DNA of 64,000 bases from Podarcis cretensis. Lineage: Eukaryota. The notes below the pieces were generated by a model that was given only the letters and a program-made list of their open reading frames with translations, was not told where the DNA came from and ran no database searches. The DNA lies in NCBI GenBank assembly GCA_951804945.1, contig OX638155.1, positions 35,402,001 to 35,466,000 on the forward strand. The letters run 5' to 3'. Of the stretch, positions 1,886 to 18,550 are shown piece after piece; within the stretch, counting starts at the first letter, position 1; each line of letters starts with the position of its first letter. The position numbers and the translations under genes are program-made.

Positions 1886-3924
1886 GCTGTGTAAGAAGCC
1901 ATTTCAAAAATCTAAAAGCTGTTATTTGGCACTCACTGATGTGTATATAGCCTATATATTTTTACTCATGATGTGAGTGAATCCATGCCTTATATCTATA
2001 CCTAATTGTGATCAATAATGTTTACAGGAATTTTGGCTTGCAGAGTGCTTTACAACTCTTCTTAATTTCTATTCATAATGCATGGAGGTGATCAAATGCA
2101 GCTGCTCGCATATGCTATAGAAAAAAGGAAGGGGGGAATTTTGAAAAGACTAGTCATCCACAAAGACACTCCACATGGTGGCATGCTGCTATTGAACTTT
2201 AATTATGTCTGTGATCACTTTGGAGAATCTAATGCATTGTATAAATTGCTAACCAACACACAATTCTGATGTGTGTGGTTTTTATTCTTTTTAATCATTG
2301 TAGAGAATTAAGGTGAATAGCTTTCACAGCAAGCTTCTGTGCCATAATGGGGGGTTGAATGGGTAGACACTGAATGGGTAGACACTTCATAGTCCATTTT
2401 GACAGATTCCCCTAACATCCTAGTCATTAAGCAGCAAAATGTATTGCATGTGCCCCAAGGAGGGAGATGCTGGCTCCCCGCTTTCATCCTCCCAATACGG
2501 AGGCTCTTGGCCAGATATGGAATCGTAGTCTCAGTGTAGCACTGCCAAAGCCAGGATTTACAGATAACTAGCAAATTGGCATCTTGTTCACTGAGATAAA
2601 CTAGGCAGTACTACACACAAGGAGATTATCCCCAGTTGGGAGGTGGGAAAAGATGGCATCCAAGTGATTTGTATCTGTTTCTTACATTTCAGCATCATGT
2701 CGAAACTGGACTTGGACAACACAGTCCTTCAGATATTGGACTGTCTTCCGGAAAGTACAAGTTCTGAGGCTTACAGCATTAAAAAAAACCCCAAAAAACA
2801 GGTTGCAAACCAAAACCTTGGGAAGCCCTTGATTTCAAGAGGCGAATAAGGCATTAAAATAAAGAGAATGCAGGGCCCTCTGCTGAAATGTCCCTTTTCT
2901 GCTAAATTATCTCATATCCTTATAGGATAAGGGATAAATTATATTGGGGGGGGGGTATTGAAATCATGCACCTCTCACAGACCAATGAAACTCCTTGTGC
3001 TCTGAATGGAGAAGAACAGCCACGGTGTACATAAACAGTTGAGTACATCTTCTGCCACCTATTAGTGACTCCAAACAATCAGGGTACATCCAGGAAGCTG
3101 CCAGCAGAAACATCAGGACATTATTAAATATTATTCATTACCTTCCATGGAAAAGGAAAAAAAAAAGAGAGACTCCTTAATCCTTCGTCTGCAGTCCAAG
3201 AAAGCATTGTAGTGTCCCTTGGGGATTTTTGTTCTCTCCTTTAGAAGCCTTAGGTTTTGGCTCACTGTTAGGTTCATGGATAGAACTGGCCCGTTGTTGC
3301 ATTTTGTTTTCCAACAAGGTAATGCCTTGCTGCAGGGATGGGCAGAAGGAAGACTGGGATCTATTGCTTGAGTGATTTGCAAGAGCCTGAAAGGGTTTCT
3401 GACTCCTAATGGATTAACAATAGCAAGTCAAATGGAAAGGGTTTTTGTTGCTGCTTAAATCTTCGTTGCTGGCCTTGTGCCAGTCATTTATCTCTTAACC
3501 TCAATGTTTGTCATCTTAAAATAAAATTATTTTTTTAGTTTATTGCATTTGACCAGGTCTTTTGAGAGTTATGTGTTGGAATCCATGATTTACCATACTT
3601 CAGATGTATGTTTGTATTAGTATATCCAGTGTGTAGGGTGCAGCAGGTAATTGAATCCCCCCCCCCCCACATCTTGCACCTTCCTCTTGGCAGGGTCTGG
3701 TAAAAAAAACAAAGTAGATCGTACAAACCCAATTTCTCTCCAGCCCTGCATAGAATCAACTTCAAGTATCATCTCAAATGCCTCAGTTCAGCAAAGAAGA
3801 TCTGCATGTGTAAAGAGCAAGTTTCTGCAAAAGCAGCTGAAGTATATCCAAAAACTGCATCATTATAACCAGACCCCATTGAGTTAGCGCCATACATTTT
3901 TTATTGTGCTTTAAATACTTTGTT

Positions 3925-3974
3925 CAGAGCTGCCCAGAGTGGCTGGGGCAACCTAGTGGCATATAAATAATAAG

Positions 3975-4025
<51 letters not shown>
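3925..4025 (+). mobile_element. L2 3' tail with (ATT)n microsatellite
   Basis: gctgcccagagtggctggggcaacc...ataaataataa followed by about 16 ATT units; same tail as the L2 copies at 17935 and 58820. Confidence 0.7.
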
Positions 4026-4589
4026 TCACTCAAGTGGGGTTGCTTCTTCCTGAGCAACTAGTTGTTGTGTTAGAAGTAACTTAGATTGTGCCTTTATAAC
4101 AGAGTCTATTAAACAATAGATAGTCTAAGTGTCATACTAATTTTGCCATAACATAAATTCAACATGATTTTAATTATAGATGCAAGACAACCATTTTCCA
4201 GATACTTTTTTTTTATGGAAATCTGTATCAGAACTGGGTTGTTTTTTTTTTAAGTCCCCTTTGTCAAGTAACTGTACCAAGATTAATATGAAAAGAAAAA
4301 TCAGCTAATGAATGAAAGCTGATTTACACAGCCCCCCTGATCTTTTATAATAGTGGTGGTATACAGCATGGCTTACATCCTTGAGCATCATCCTTGAGCA
4401 TTGGTCATCCTGGCTGGGGCTGAAATGAGCTGTAGCCCAACAATATATGGAGGGCTATTGATTCCCAATCCCCATCTTACATCATCATAGCCAAAGCTGC
4501 ACCTTATGCAAGATAAGCAACTCCAGTTTGTTTTGATCTGTTCTTCATAATTTGCCGATCCATTGATACACTTGGGAGGGGGCTTCATT

Positions 4590-4740
4590 CAGTGGCAAAG
4601 CACACACAGAAGGTACAAGATGCAGCCCTTGGTCTCTCCTGTTAAGAAGAACCAGGTAGAAGTGCTGGGAATGAGCCTCTCCTGAGACCCTGGAGACCCT
4701 GTAGAAGATACTGAGCCAACTGGACCAATGATCTGATTCA
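4590..4740 (+). mobile_element. Squam3-like SINE (degenerate)
   Basis: ctgagaccctggagac...atactgagccaactggaccaatgatctgattca. Confidence 0.55.
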
Positions 4741-4925
4741 GGCCACATTCACACCAAACTCTTAAAGCACTATGATACATGGTTTCCCCCAAAGAATTCT
4801 GGAAGCTGTAGTTTGCTAAGGCAGCTGAGAGTTGTTAGGAGACCTATTCTCCCCTCCCAGAGCTACAATTCCCAGAATGGTTTAACAATCAACCCCTCTT
4901 CACAAGGAACTCCAGGAATTGTAAT
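4741..4925. mobile_element. Non-autonomous DNA element (ggccacattcacacc family); related copies at ~18655-18825, 22735-23070 and 57300-57420
   Basis: Shared motifs cacaccatacatttaaagcac / ctgggaactgtagtttgttaagg recur at four places in the window. Confidence 0.55.
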
Positions 4926-5696
4926 AAAGAATAATCAGAGTAGACTTATTTAAATTAATGGATTCATGTTACTTACATCTATGGCTCTTAATGAGTCTAC
5001 CATAAGTATGACTTAGTTGGATATCACTATCCAACTATCTAAAGAGACTTAATTGTTGTTTTTCAGCCCTTGTTGTAAGGACTATTTTATTGACACCACC
5101 ACCGGAGCAGAAAAGCTCTGCTGATATCTGATAGTGTATTCCAGGATCTGGTGTGTTTATGGATATTATGATAAAATGAAAGGAAAGGAATAAAAAGAAG
5201 CCTGTATGTTTACAAAGTGATATGGTAGCCTTACAAACTCTTTTCTTTGGCTGCTGGTCGTACCATGTGGAACTAATGACTGCATAGCTTATGTAATGTT
5301 AGAGCAATATTTAAGATTTACCCTCTGAAATGCTTCTGATTACTCCATGTCATCCTTAATGAATAGTTTCTGATTTAAAATTCCAAATTAGTTGTTCATT
5401 TTCTTGGCTCCAGTCCAGAGCCAAAGTTAGTTATGTGTGCAAAAGTCCTGCCGAAACTGATGGGACAAACAGGCGTGCCTGTGGCTTGCTGACATCCCAT
5501 TGGTTTTCAAAGGATTTAAGCATGACTAACGTAACCTGGATTGGAGATCTAACATATGGTTGCTCCACATTTGCTGCTATATCAAATATGCTATGTGGCA
5601 ATTGCCTCTCAAAAAGGCTTGTGTTGAGGGCGGGGTTTGCATAAGCTTTTGTAGGCAACATTTTATTGGTACCATGGAAGCTGGAGGTATGATAGG

Positions 5697-8510: not shown

Positions 8511-9484
8511 AAATTGCCTTTAGACATTCATCTCTTCAGGGCAGGCTTTTGATGGTTGTTTGATAAGTGTGCTGTAGCACTGTCTCCCCAGACAGCAATA
8601 TATGAGTAATAATAATAATAGCTAGCAGATTGGGGCAAAGAGTTAGGGACATTTGATGTGGTTCTGCAAGGGCTTTCATGGTGCATTTTATTTCTTTTCA
8701 ACAAAAATAAGCTCTTGTTTTACAGGCAATATACTAGCGGAGCATGATAGAAGCAAGATGCCTGAAAACAATTTGGAAACAGGAAGGTGTTTGCCTGCTC
8801 ATGTGCAACTTGGATACTTTTCCATAATTTTTGATTTCATTTTCTCGAAATAACTCGAATAAAACGCTGCCAACTGGCAGCCTCGGCAAACTAAGAAGGG
8901 CTTGTTTGCTTGCAATTACTTTTGTATCACGATGCCAAATGACCAGCGTATTTCACTTTAAGTACATCCATATGCGAGCATAGAGACATACCTGCCAACC
9001 AGAAGTCGCCACTTTGTTCTTTCGATCTTGTCTCTTTTGTGGCGTCTGCACATGGCAAGTGGCTCAAGCAGAGTGGCAGGCAGGCAGGCATGCAGGGCAG
9101 GCACAGCTCCTTGTTGGATTGGGCCCTGCAAGTGAAACAGAGCTGAAAGGAGATAGCCGAGAGGAAGTGCAAGGGATGAGCCCCGACATAAGCCAGTGAG
9201 CCAATATTTTTACTACAGGGATGGGAAATGGTGGTGGCCCTCCAGACTCCCATCAGCCCAAGCCACCATAGCTGAGGAGAGCTGGAGCCCAACATCTGAA
9301 GCGGCACAGGTTCTCCTGCCCCCAGTGGGTAGCCTGTAAGATACAAGAAGCAGGCAAAGTCTTAGAAAGCATTGTAGGGTGATTGGCTGTATGTGGTCAG
9401 CTGACACTGACGATGCCAGTGCAGATTGTGGCTGAGATGGGGCAATTTCCCTGCTCTGTACTTAGATTATGGAATATTAGAGAC

Positions 9485-9620
9485 ACGAGGAACCTGTGGT
9501 CACCCAGATGTTCTTGGACTACAACTCTCATCACCTCCTGACCGCTGGGCATGCAGGCTGGAGCTGATGGGAGTTGGAGTCCAACAACATTTGGAGGACC
9601 ACCAGTTCCTCATCTCCAGG
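9485..9620. mobile_element. Palindromic hAT-type MITE family; other copies at ~4380-4470, 9217-9325, 21023-21125, 32650-32745 and 42770-42900
   Basis: ccagatgttcttggactacaactctcatca...tgatgggagttggagtccaacaacatttgg palindrome; same family as the TSD-flanked copy at 52027. Confidence 0.7.
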
Positions 9621-9784
9621 CTATTGTCGCACCAGGAGCCTGGGTGATGCAGAGAGAAGCGTGGATTTTTGGAAACCTCATCTGGGAGCATGGTTTCCAG
9701 CGCTGCCTTACTTTCCAATGCCAACTAATTGGAAACAGATGGTTCTTTGCCATGCAATGGCTGCTTTAGAAATTGTGTGGCAGC

Positions 9785-11910
9785 GACTTCTGGGTTAGCG
9801 CCATTGGCAATGGCGGAATTCCTCTGATCCAGAGGAACCCGCTCCGTGAAAATTGGGTCTTGCCGCCGCGGTGAAGGCGGAGACCCTTTAAAAATCCCAG
9901 GCGGAGGAAGCCTGGGAACGTGGGATTCGGCTGACACCAGGAGCGCCCCCCCTACACGCAAGGAAACCCCTTTTTCGGGGATCCGAAGCGACGTGGGGTG
10001 AGCGGCGCGGTGTTTTGAATCGACCGCTATTTTTACGGAGTGAAGCCGCACAGCCGTTGCCGGAGAGCGCTGACTTTTTCCTGGGGACAATTGGACTCTA
10101 AACAAGTACCCGTGAGTAGAACGGAAAATTGGGCTAAGAAACACTTTAATTTGGCACTCAGCAGGAAGGTTCTAAACAGGAAGTCCGCCTTCCGCTTTTG
10201 TAAATAGTCTGAAGCAAAAATCGTGCAAGCCAAAGTCTGGAAAGTTGTACATAAAGGTTTTAAATTCCTCCTGTTTTGATCATCTAAACCCCTCTTGGAA
10301 GCAGGAGTAAAGAGGGGAAATTTGATTGTTCAAGCCTGCAGGAGAGAGAGTAAAGAAAGATAAATTTCCACCATCTCAGACCTGGGAACGGGGTGTCAGA
10401 GACGGAGATTTTTGGTGAAGTTCATTGACTGTGAATGGAACATCTTTTGACAGTTAGTTGAAGAAGAGAAACAAATTGATTCCAATGTTGCCTTTTGCAT
10501 TTAAAAGAAACAAAAAATCCAAAAAATGAAAGTAATTTTTCTTTGTTGGATCTGCTTTTAAAAGATGGATACAAATAGAAATTGCCTCCTCTAGAGGGAG
10601 TTTGTTAAATTGTTGCTGGAGTCGTTCTGGGGATTTTACAGCTGTGGAGATTAGGATCGTGGGACCAGACTGTGACCTTGAACAAAAATGTGTTTGGAAG
10701 AAGTTTTGGTGCTTGCTTTTTGCAAGACAAGCGCTTTGTTGGAGCAGATGCATGAGAAGATGGATTTGATGACTGTTGCAGTCAGAAACTTTGGACAAAC
10801 AGTGAATATGTATACAGAAACCATCCAGGAGCCAACTCAGGAATCTGTTTTGATAGAGCAAGTGCAAACGCAGAAGATAATGGAGGAGGCTGCTGTTGAA
10901 CCTCAAGTAATACAAATGGAGAGGCCCGAGGCCCTACAGGAGCATAAGCTATTGTTGTTGAAGGCTGAATTTGAAGTGGGCCAGGGGGGGTCTGGAGTTG
11001 TGGGGCCCCTTAAGTTTGGAGGGACTTTGAAACATGCTTTTAAATATTTTCTGGACTACACTGTTGATTGTGGGGAATGGGACTGTGGGGAATGGGCCGA
11101 TCTGCTGAGGAGAGATGGATATATTTTTGAGTTGGAACATCCCCGAGACCTACTCCTCAATGAGAAAGGAAAGAAATTAAGAAAGAGATCTACAAAAGAC
11201 AAGGTAAAGTGCAAGTACAAACAAGAAGAAGACCTGCAGAAGGGACATGGGAAAGACTTAAGAGCCTCAGATATAAGATTACCAGGTTCATGGACTAGAT
11301 GGAATGGACAGTAAGGACTGACATAACCCGAGACCAGGAAAAAGAGACGCTGGAGGAAGATTGGAAGAAAACTTTTAAAAAGTTATTTTGGGAATTAGTG
11401 TAAAATTAATGAGTATTAGGGAAAATGTTGGAATGAAAATATTTGGCTTTAGTAGAAATGTTATAAGGAATTATGTAAAAATAAATATTAAGTTTTAAGT
11501 CTTAAGGTATTTTTGGGAAGATAAGATTAAAATAAACTAAGGTAAACTGAATGACAGAATATAGTGAAAGATGGAAATGATTTGTTGAGTTAATTAATAG
11601 GTTAGACTGTTAAGACAAACTATTTAAAAAAAATTGAGAAGGATGGAAAGAATTTGCTGAAATAAATAACTAAACTAGAATACAAAAAGGGAGGTGTGAG
11701 GAGGTCGATGAAACAAGTTAATGAAAGATAAAGATATGGAATATTGTGTTTTTATTGTTATTGTTGTATTGATTTTTATGTTTCCCCCCCCTCTTTTAAG
11801 TATTGTTATATATGCTTTGAAAATTTTCTTTTGTTGTTGTTGCTTTCTTCTTTTTTCTTTCTCTGTAATTTTTGAAACTTCTAATAAATATCATTTAAAA
11901 AAAAGAAAAG
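9785..11910 (+). mobile_element. Non-autonomous L1-derived retrotransposon (HAL1-like or internally deleted L1), complete
   Basis: Perfect 16-bp TSD gaaattgtgtggcagc (9769-9784 and 11911-11926). L1-like 5' start GACTTCTGGG...AATGGCGG and CpG-rich 5'UTR. One 208-aa ORF, an ORF2 C-terminal vestige (RDQEKETLEEDWKK), AATAAA at 11883 and an A-rich tail. No EN or RT motifs. Confidence 0.85.
10688..11314 (+). CDS. 208-aa ORF of the L1-derived element (ORF1p-like, coiled-coil-type N-terminus)
   Basis: Longest ORF in the window, ATG-started. The N-half is E/Q/M/L-rich and heptad-like, and HPRDLLL resembles the ORF1p PR-x-hydrophobic motif (inference). Confidence 0.5.
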   Translation: MCLEEVLVLAFCKTSALLEQMHEKMDLMTVAVRNFGQTVNMYTETIQEPTQESVLIEQVQTQKIMEEAAVEPQVIQMERPEALQEHKLLLLKAEFEVGQGGSGVVGPLKFGGTLKHAFKYFLDYTVDCGEWDCGEWADLLRRDGYIFELEHPRDLLLNEKGKKLRKRSTKDKVKCKYKQEEDLQKGHGKDLRASDIRLPGSWTRWNGQ

Positions 11911-12338
11911 GAAATTGTGTGGCAGCTTCATGAGAAGAGGCAATAATCTGCAACCTCCAACTGTGCAGTAAGCCAAATCCTACCACTCTCTGAAATTGAA
12001 AGGAAACCAGGGGTGGATGGGAGAGCATTGAGATCGGATTCTTGTGCATGTGATGCTACAGAGGTGGGCAGTACATAGGTGCAAACCCCAACATAGATGA
12101 GGGGAAGCAGCTGGGGAAAGGGGTTGGAAGGGGAAGTCATCGGCAAAAGAAGAGTTATTATCTTTCCTTTGCATGCTGCTGTTTCTCCCTTGCAAATTGT
12201 GTTCTCCCCATAACCGCTTTGTAGCTTTTTACTGGTGTCTGAGATTCCAGGACCTGAATCTGCTGCTAAACATTTTTTTTATAACTTTTTTTTTTTAAGT
12301 GTGGGAGTATTTGGGACTATTTAATGTGTGGTTCATGA

Positions 12339-12670
12339 CAGTACGTTTCCTGGCACAATGCAAAGTGTTGGCGCTGACCTTTAAAGCCCTAAATGGCCTC
12401 AGCCCAGTATACCTGAAGGAGCGTCTTCACTCCCATCGTTCAGCCCGGATACTGAGGTCCAGTTCTGAGAGCCTTCTGGCGGTTCCCTCACTGCGAGAAG
12501 TGAAGGTGCAGGGAACCAGCAGAGGGCCTTCTCGGTAGTGGCGCCCGCCCTGTGGAACGCCCTCCCATCAGATGTCAAGGAAATAAACAACTATCTGACT
12601 TTTAGAAGACATCTGAAGGCAGCCCTGTTTAGGGAAGCTTTTAATATTTGATGAGTTATTGTATTTTAAT
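12339..12670 (+). mobile_element. L2 LINE fragment (RT C-terminus and start of 3'UTR)
   Basis: Encodes KVLALTFKALNGLSPVYLKERL; near-identical to the copy at 18064-18351. Confidence 0.9.
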
Positions 12671-17982: not shown

Positions 17983-18550
17983 TATTTATACCCGGCCCAT
18001 CTGGCTGGGCCTCCCCAGCCACTCTGAGCTGCTTCCAACAAAATATTAAAGTACAGTAATGCATCAAACATTAAAAGCTTCCCTAAACAGGACTGCCTTC
18101 AGATGTCTTCTAAAAGTCTGGTAGTTGTTGTTCTCTTTGACATCTGGTGGGAGGGCGTTCCACAGGGTGGGTGCCACTACCGAGAAGGCCCTCTGCCTGG
18201 TTCCCTGTAATTTGGCTTCTTGCAGCGAGGGAACCGCCAGAAGGCCCTCGATGCTGGACCTCAGTGTCCGGGTAGAACAATGGAGGTGGAGACACTCCTT
18301 CAGATATACTGGACCAAGGCCATTTAGGGCTTTAAAGTTCAGTGCCAACACTTTGAATTGTGCTCAGAAACGTACTGGGAGCCAATGCAGGTCTTTCAAG
18401 ACTGGTGTCATGTGGTCTCGGTGGCCATTCCCAGTCACTAGTCTTGCTGCCGCATTCTGGATTAGTTGTAGTTTCTGGGTCACCTTCAAAGGTAGCCCCA
18501 TGTAGAGCGCATTGCAGTAGTCCAAGCGGGAGATAACCAGAGCATGCACT
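17935..18550 (-). mobile_element. L2 LINE, 5'-truncated, with (TTA)n tail
   Basis: ORFs [21 protein letters not shown]...[10 protein letters not shown]...[12 protein letters not shown] and AFSVVAPTLWNALP are typical L2 RT C-terminus; (AAT)n at 17939-17981. Confidence 0.95.

Follow-up and report, generated by a model that had tools for sequence, protein, structure and literature searches.

A HAL1-like family of lacertid lizards encoding an apparently RRM-deleted ORF1p

A 64,000-nucleotide stretch of the Podarcis cretensis genome (GenBank assembly GCA_951804945.1, contig OX638155.1, positions 35,402,001 to 35,466,000; hereafter the window) contains a member of a HAL1-like (half-L1) family of lacertid lizards. 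Its single open reading frame (ORF) is under selection as a frame and, by sequence comparison, encodes an ORF1p of the long interspersed element LINE-1 (L1) apparently deprived of most of its RRM; the role of the protein itself we can only infer. There is little doubt that the element is an ORF1-only derivative of a lizard LINE-1. The explanation that best covers the observations, to which we give a probability of about one half, is that the window holds a decaying copy of such a derivative, whose protein would aid its own RNA in cis. What is new here is the assignment of the ORF, by sequence comparison, to an RRM-deleted and N-terminally shortened L1 ORF1p.

The family touches on two open questions, namely why ORF1-only elements hold on to their gene and what part ORF1p plays in retrotransposition. 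With an RRM apparently lost stepwise yet a frame that is guarded, a widespread lizard family would amount to a natural deletion series, one that separates the need for a protein from the need for translation, and would serve as a natural test of ORF1p functions besides RNA binding. As far as the literature searched shows, the family also extends HAL1-like elements beyond mammals, and it identifies a set of Podarcis proteins annotated as "hypothetical" as products of a mobile element.

A dispersed family rather than one deleted L1

The unit runs from 9785 to 11910 (2126 bp) between the two copies of a perfect target-site duplication (TSD; 16/16, 9769–9784 and 11911–11926), and this pair is the sole match with E <0.4 between the unit and the rest of the window. 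An L1-type 5′ end, an AATAAA signal and an A-tail complete the picture of a HAL1-like unit, free of reverse transcriptase (RT), that retrotransposed as a whole, much as the initial annotation had described it. As for an endonuclease or RT, the unit holds no further plus-strand ORF of 120 aa, and tblastn of the ORF2-like parts of P0009 and P0010, two of the proteins compared, found no match in it.

Only one copy of the unit lies within the window, which on its own would suit a single normal L1, internally deleted after its insertion. Evidence from other loci makes that reading next to untenable. A protein search returned four hits among 143 candidates, comprising one unnamed protein and three from Podarcis lilfordi, each on a contig of its own (71, 61 and 41% identical to the ORF); an exhaustive search returned six, one of them already found, adding two unnamed relatives and three weaker matches. 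The same stop codon closes five of six relatives, and one relative ends early. Three contigs in one species exclude a single orthologous locus, and the deletions and the stop recur both in the proteins of other loci and in the contigs of other organisms, the stop at 11289 being present in 37 contigs of one sequencing run, X1.

Contigs of four public runs (X1, X5, X7 and X15) aligned to 9300–12400 point the same way, their summed depth being a measure of repetitiveness rather than of copy number. In X1 the depth is 43,618–91,064 over ORF bins as against 64–70 on unique flanks, and in X5 it is 3,645–5,623 as against 18–21. In contigs from two more organisms, 82–86% identical to the window copy, the sequence continues across the internal deletion points: X15 records 13 and 14 cross both points gap-free, and X7 record 29 crosses the first. 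In three of the four runs, contigs extend 51–63 letters past 11289. Together, the three loci, the contigs over shared junctions and the depth exclude the post-insertion deletion of a lone L1, an outcome that the initial annotation had itself raised; its proposal of a non-autonomous, multi-copy lacertid family finds support in the three P. lilfordi loci and in contig depth far above the flanks. The unit is thus a copy of a dispersed family whose members probably number in the hundreds. Pairwise protein identities of 28–81% mark this family as old. No lacertid contig was found in the metagenome collection.

In the DNA runs, depth in most bins of the head (9820–10235) and tail (11276–11795) is 4–20 times that of ORF bins, and more abundant families seem to share these ends, perhaps ORF-less derivatives or the partner L1. 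X15, which is RNA by guess only, also holds pieces of the family; we draw no claim of expression from it.

The ORF as a cut-down ORF1p

The reference point for the protein is P0012 (CAI5776284.1), a full 370-residue P. lilfordi protein reached by searching with a weak relative and named in UniRef as "L1 transposable element RRM domain-containing protein". Its structural model has a mean predicted local distance difference test score (pLDDT) of 46.7 and is poor outside the coiled coil, and it shows a helix at 58–168, alternating strands and helices at about 170–254, and then, as far as 324, a helix-strand-helix domain. In Foldseek, chains of human L1ORF1p fill the first six rows for this model (E 0.004–0.05). 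The family profile aligns in hhalign with P0009 in the N-terminal half (probability 97.8, E 8e-13) and with P0011 in the C-terminal half (96.5, E 7e-10). Conversely, a profile of six parent sequences scores the family protein P0001 at 67.6 bits, as against 1.8 for the best of 200 shuffles, in two blocks that place parent 82–157 on residues 13–90 and parent 259–333 on residues 118–195, the second block alone reaching 40.1 bits. Six of the seven family proteins stand far above their 200 shuffles each.

A joint alignment indicates what was lost. The family start falls on parent Met56, such that the N-terminal 55 residues are gone, and the coiled coil is shorter than the parent's. Parent residues 213–252 are absent at the same columns in six of seven members, the seventh having a gap of similar size whose placement is unsure, and P0001–P0003 additionally lack parent residues from about 164 to 197 (33–34 residues). 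The net internal loss of some 74 residues agrees with the two profile blocks. Measured against a predicted parent RRM at 169–256 (about 88 residues), 69 residues are absent in P0001–P0003 and 40 in P0004, P0005 and P0007. We infer from a low-confidence model and from domain order that the deleted stretch is the RRM; the ORF would then encode an ORF1p of which the coiled coil and the C-terminal domain are left. The initial annotation had the ORF diverging far from canonical ORF1p, and the hhalign probabilities uphold descent from ORF1p; divergence is only part of the account, for the protein also appears to have lost its N-terminal region and the greater part of the predicted RRM.

Other comparisons were less telling. 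The AlphaFold model of the family protein is uninformative (mean pLDDT 37.5), with a helix at 3–45 modelled at pLDDT of about 40–56. Pfam, Transposase_22 included, gave no match for the ORF, its relatives or the full parent, ESM Atlas scores for the ORF were at most 0.81, and the parent found only coiled-coil look-alikes among PDB sequences. VIA-align placed human L1ORF1p at Z 5.2 against the parent, level with unrelated folds. No relic of parental N-terminal coding upstream of the ATG emerged in nine comparisons, in which 166–471 of 500 shuffles did as well. The tree separates family from parents by a 100/100 branch about 1.1 changes long; it is unrooted, its long branches meet, and it does not show a single origin of the family, which the shared start, gap and stop would nevertheless favour.

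Two Podarcis muralis proteins, P0014 and P0015, come from gene models that resemble TRIM39 (RING, B-box) but finish with the RRM and C-terminal domain of an L1 ORF1p; they may represent either a Lyosin-like fusion exon or a mis-stitched model.

Selection on the reading frame

Contig pieces were selected by length, not by coding, and the counts given here refer to the 33 listed out of a far larger set, with two pieces straddling the ATG (10588–10772) and nine on flanks or junctions left aside. Seven of nine pieces inside the ORF are free of gaps, compared with one of 13 in the untranslated regions (UTRs; Fisher p 0.0015), and eight of nine compared with three of 13 are frame-compatible (p 0.0075). 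Gap letters per base number 0.002 in the ORF and 0.017 in the UTRs, at substitution levels of 15.5% and 12.7%, respectively. None of the 12 indel rows listed falls inside the ORF, and X7 record 28 carries one +15 and one −15 nt change, both of which preserve the frame. A neutral simulation stayed free of stops in 57 of 2000 trials at 15.5% divergence and in 9 of 2000 at 25%, the latter corresponding to the 55% protein identity between the two main branches. We consider it very likely that the frame was selected in master copies; among copies it is protected, and the amino-acid sequence changes at about the rate expected of neutral DNA. The frequent frameshifts of an unconserved ORF, a prospect raised in the initial annotation, are not what the listed pieces hold.

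A frame that is guarded while residues change at a near-neutral rate is also what one would see if translation alone mattered, with the open frame keeping the RNA stable and ribosome-bound near ORF2p and the protein a by-product. The RRM and basic N-terminus would be dispensable on this account, as they seem to be, the products are acidic, and the family-protein model is poor (mean pLDDT 37.5). We regard this account as somewhat unlikely, however, in view of where conservation falls: residues 1–30 are conserved at 62% and residues 179–200 at 76%, the segments between them at only 36–52%, and the C-terminal end holds even in the most distant member, P0008. Moreover, the coiled coil and C-terminal domain are kept, and the two deletions are confined to the predicted RRM.

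A further reading treats the ORF as a slowly decaying relic under relaxed selection, in a family on its way to becoming ORF-less and bipartite. Databases do favour open frames, and the stepwise loss of domains, the long branches relative to the parents (a stem of about 1.1 changes per column) and a window copy with a lost stop and a private amino-acid change would all fit, as would head and tail bins 5–20 times deeper than ORF bins, although ORF-less or other families may share those ends. Yet the pieces were not picked for open frames and gaps in their ORF parts are rare, both 15-nt changes in X7 record 28 are in frame, and subfamilies at 28–55% identity are all open, which leaves the relic reading very improbable.

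How the protein might act

The reading we favour, in which the protein aids its own RNA, would run as follows. Transcription likely starts from the L1 5′ promoter, and the short ORF of the RNA would be translated; ORF2p is likely captured from autonomous full-length L1s; and insertion would proceed by target-primed reverse transcription, mobilized in trans, of which the footprints alone are seen. The protein, comprising a coiled coil and C-terminal domain, would help its own RNA, in cis, to enter the L1 particle. As the best single mechanism we tentatively propose, at not quite an even bet, a coiled-coil adaptor acting in cis. The adaptor proposal draws on the view that the proteins of ORF1-bearing non-autonomous LINEs multimerize with their partner's proteins (PMC5786205) and on heterotrimers that form between distinct coiled coils (PMC10588031). 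A complex prediction with the family coiled coil and two parent coiled coils reached 0.18 against a mark of 0.34, and gave no answer.

The alignment also suggests a history. One deletion would have fused the end of ORF1 to the L1 3′ end, creating the new stop; a 40-residue in-frame deletion would have followed or arisen at the same time; and a further 33–34 residues would have been lost in one branch, which includes the window copy.

Several observations weigh against the favoured reading. On the functional side, a human L1 coiled coil without the N-terminus formed no heterodimers and left retrotransposition unaffected (PMC5605252), and a basic N-terminus is required in ORF1p (PMC5940361), a region that the family protein is without. 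All seven family proteins are acidic (isoelectric point 4.6–5.7; parent 8.4), which argues against RNA binding, and five upstream ATGs stand ahead of the ORF. As to descent, P0008 falls below its shuffles against the parent profile (1.1 vs 5.2 bits), pLDDT stays <50 over the RRM of the parent model, and all Foldseek rows remain above E 0.001. As to selection, P0002 residues 62–171, at 70% identity, lie at the neutral expectation for 15.5% nucleotide divergence, a rough comparison that draws on different copies; with contigs seven times as deep at 11251 as at 11120, the conserved C-terminal end may reflect shared DNA; the pieces are related to one another and all compared with one copy, with homopolymers making up 15–20% of UTR but 9% of ORF; and one of the nine ORF pieces does carry a frameshift.

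Other roles can be envisaged for a protein of this make-up. An RRM-less, acidic coiled-coil mimic could join the oligomers of autonomous ORF1p, divert L1 particles and evolve fast in the ensuing conflict, thereby acting as a parasite of L1. We think this unlikely; were it true, a hijacking factor of the satellite type would be at hand for a vertebrate retrotransposon, and ORF1p would be proven to have a function, other than binding RNA through its RRM, on which selection can act. Less probable by far is that the protein serves as a dominant-negative form of ORF1p, poisoning the particles of autonomous L1s or competing with them, to the benefit of the half element or of the host. Truncated human ORF1p does suppress L1 in trans, and better without its RRM (PMC5605252); distinct coiled coils form heterotrimers (PMC10588031), and the coiled coil is retained here. 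Nevertheless, a coiled coil lacking the N-terminus did not suppress (PMC5605252), and that region is absent in the family; coiled-coil identity to the parent is just 25–34%; and plain suppression would presumably gain little for an element that depends on L1.

Relation to known elements

Mammalian HAL1 families were reportedly described by Smit in 1999 and by Bao and Jurka in 2010. As portrayed in PMC5753468, PMC5786205 and PMC3627910, they are elements that, like the unit, derive from L1, carry ORF1 only, have neither endonuclease nor RT, retain both L1 ends, a TSD and an A-tail, and keep their frame for long, as illustrated by a guinea-pig HAL1 ORF retained for 29–44 million years (PMC3627910). 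The lizard family shares descent from the L1 clade (ORF1p match, 5′ motif), the missing enzymes, multiple copies of common internal structure (three loci in one species, contigs elsewhere) and a long-kept coding capacity (open at 28–81% identity, gaps depleted in ORF pieces); a TSD and poly(A) insertion is seen in the window copy only. Where it departs from mammalian HAL1 is in being squamate, in stemming from a lizard clade-1 L1, and in a protein that has no N-terminal region and little of the predicted RRM. A coiled coil and C-terminal domain are present, and the complete ORF1p of coiled coil, RRM and C-terminal domain is not; the family is therefore classed as a HAL1 variant rather than a plain member. 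In mammalian L1, RRM and C-terminal domain bind RNA together and form the conserved half of the protein (PMC5940361, PMC6428221). Literature titles and abstract openings yielded no squamate HAL1 or RRM-less mobile ORF1p; Repbase/Dfam and the 2010 work of Bao and Jurka lay outside that search, and a prior entry is possible.

Lizard clade-1 L1s (Anolis L1_AC1-15; PMC5381506) and P0012 share with the unit the start motif, a long CpG-rich 5′ UTR, an AT-rich 3′ UTR with C/T tracts, AATAAA, the coiled coil and the C-terminal domain. The unit is 2.1 kb as against 6.2–6.7 kb in these L1s, with an ORF1 of 200 rather than about 350–370 codons and no ORF2 (PMC5381506). HeT-A and Ag-Sponge, non-autonomous LINEs of the Jockey and CR1 clades, encode one ORF1-type protein and borrow their enzyme in trans, but belong to other clades and hosts, and in the extract of PMC5786205 their ORF1 is not reported as domain-deleted. 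The ORF-less bipartite LINEs RIME, NARTc and Bov-A likewise join the parent's 5′ and 3′ ends through an internal deletion; they have no ORF and reportedly stem from RTE, Ingi, Vingi and R2, not L1 (PMC5786205), whereas a 200-codon ORF is conserved here.

Domesticated genes offer a further parallel. L1TD1 (PMC4161310, PMC11925450) and Lyosin (PMC12129022) are, like the family protein, ORF1p derivatives with lost domains: exon 1 of L1TD1 keeps the C-terminal domain alone, and L1TD1 binds ORF1p and promotes retrotransposition (PMC4161310, PMC11925450), while Lyosin has no C-terminal domain and most of its bird forms are RRM-deleted (PMC12129022). Those are fixed host genes, whereas the unit belongs to a dispersed mobile family, multi-copy and TSD-flanked rather than confined to one orthologous host locus.

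Age and private changes of the window copy

At 11289 the whole of the X1 depth reads G (122394.6 of 122394.6, in 37 contigs), which produces TGA at 11288–11290. The window copy has lost this family stop, and the family ORF has 200 codons; the complete 208-codon ORF of the initial annotation is indeed present at 10688–11314, though its last eight codons are private to this copy. The window copy differs from at least 95% of the X1 depth at no fewer than eight places, among 40 differences listed, and one private change replaces Asp with Tyr. X5, a run with another organism label and a flank about 1% different, has a contig that bridges the 3′ junction of this copy (record 24, reaching 34 letters into the unit); X1 contigs cover the two junctions with 29 letters on the unit side, two below the bridging rule. 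The insertion likely predates the split of the X1 and X5 organisms. As to an empty site, X15 record 16 fits from 11911 after 53 unlike letters, and none of the 15 joints listed spans the unit. The element had been called young, a description at odds with a 3′ junction found in a second organism, a short interrupted tail, the private differences and the age of the family.

Architecture of the unit

The features of the unit are collected in Table 1. At the 5′ end, eight of 11 letters agree with the start motif of lizard clade-1 L1s (PMC5381506), and ATGGCG follows at 9810–9815 after a spacer of 14 nt, as against 8 nt in that motif. The ratio of observed to expected CpG is 0.81–1.22 in 200-nt intervals starting at 9769–9969 and 0.13–0.26 across the ORF; the CpG-rich start is likely an internal promoter. 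An ATG-initiated ORF of at least 200 codons arose in two of 2000 composition-matched shuffles of the unit. Placement of the gaps around codons 97–111 hinges on an alignment at 25–35% identity, and an in-frame 15-nt tandem duplication lies at 11066–11095, inside the C-terminal-domain region. GC content falls to 23–34% in the last 600 nt, where AATAAA occupies 11883–11888 and the 14-nt A-tail 11897–11910 (A8-G-A4-G). The insertion target, TT/AGAAA, resembles the site preferred by the L1 endonuclease. The C and T tracts of the 3′ UTR are of types described for lizard L1 (PMC5381506).

Table 1 Features of the HAL1-like unit, with domain assignments as predicted from alignment to P0012
Feature	Positions	Strand	Remarks
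Left TSD	9769–9784	+	TTTA just upstream, giving target TT/AGAAA
L1 clade-1-type 5′ terminus	9785–9815	+	Start motif, then ATGGCG (PMC5381506)
5′ UTR	9785–10687	+	903 nt; first 380 nt CpG-rich; five upstream ORFs of 5–14 codons each
Open ORF	10688–11314	+	208 codons here; family stop TGA at 11288–11290 gives 200 codons
Codons 1–96, shortened ORF1p coiled coil	10688–10975	+	Start Met aligns with Met56 of P0012
Codons 97–111, putative 15-residue RRM remnant	10976–11020	+	Sits between two in-frame deletions (parent ~164–197 and ~213–252)
Codons 112–200, ORF1p C-terminal domain	11021–11287	+	Last 22 residues strongly conserved
Putative ORF2 C-terminus vestige	11290–11403	+	Other frame than ORF; one internal stop
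3′ UTR	11404–11910	+	AT-rich; 60-nt duplication, C8 tract 11784–11791, T-rich tract, AATAAA, A-tail
Right TSD	11911–11926	+	Identical to left TSD

The peptide that the initial annotation named as an ORF2 vestige is present in the sequence as written. Its likeness to squamate ORF2 C-termini is our presumption, and homology is not confirmed: searches including Pfam and ESM Atlas gave no match to ORF2p, with no lizard ORF2 C-terminus among the comparisons, and a repeat of the vestige within the 3′ UTR lacked significance, being equalled by 815 and 137 of 1000 shuffles. In the family sequence, the stop overlaps the ATG of the putative vestige frame at 11288–11292 (TGATG), a termination-reinitiation layout, and in the window copy the frame starting there closes after two codons. 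The conserved end of the ORF was also considered as an alternative ORF2 frame and rejected, given that, as far as 11284, its alignment is to the end of ORF1p in P0010.

The first 52 nt of the unit (9785–9836) form one long hairpin, and 9785–9905 folds better than 200 of 200 shuffles (z −3.1). Were the donor-like site at 10112 spliced to the acceptor-like one near 10641, four of the five upstream ATGs (9810–10641) would drop out; no matching joint occurs among the contig joints listed. In the 3′ UTR, a degenerate tandem duplication of 60 nt (11538–11597 and 11611–11669) is 72% alike, equalled by none of 1000 shuffles. No tRNA head was found for the unit and no Rfam match inside it, and an antisense ORF of 158 aa (10454–10933) has no Pfam match.

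Beyond the unit, the left flank carries at 9507–9610 a short palindromic high-copy repeat with very deep contig coverage and weak miRNA-hairpin matches far under the gathering score, probably a miniature inverted-repeat transposable element. Pieces of another abundant repeat, at 12300–12590 and 18125–18505, lie on opposite strands with similar translations, and are probably old LINE fragments.

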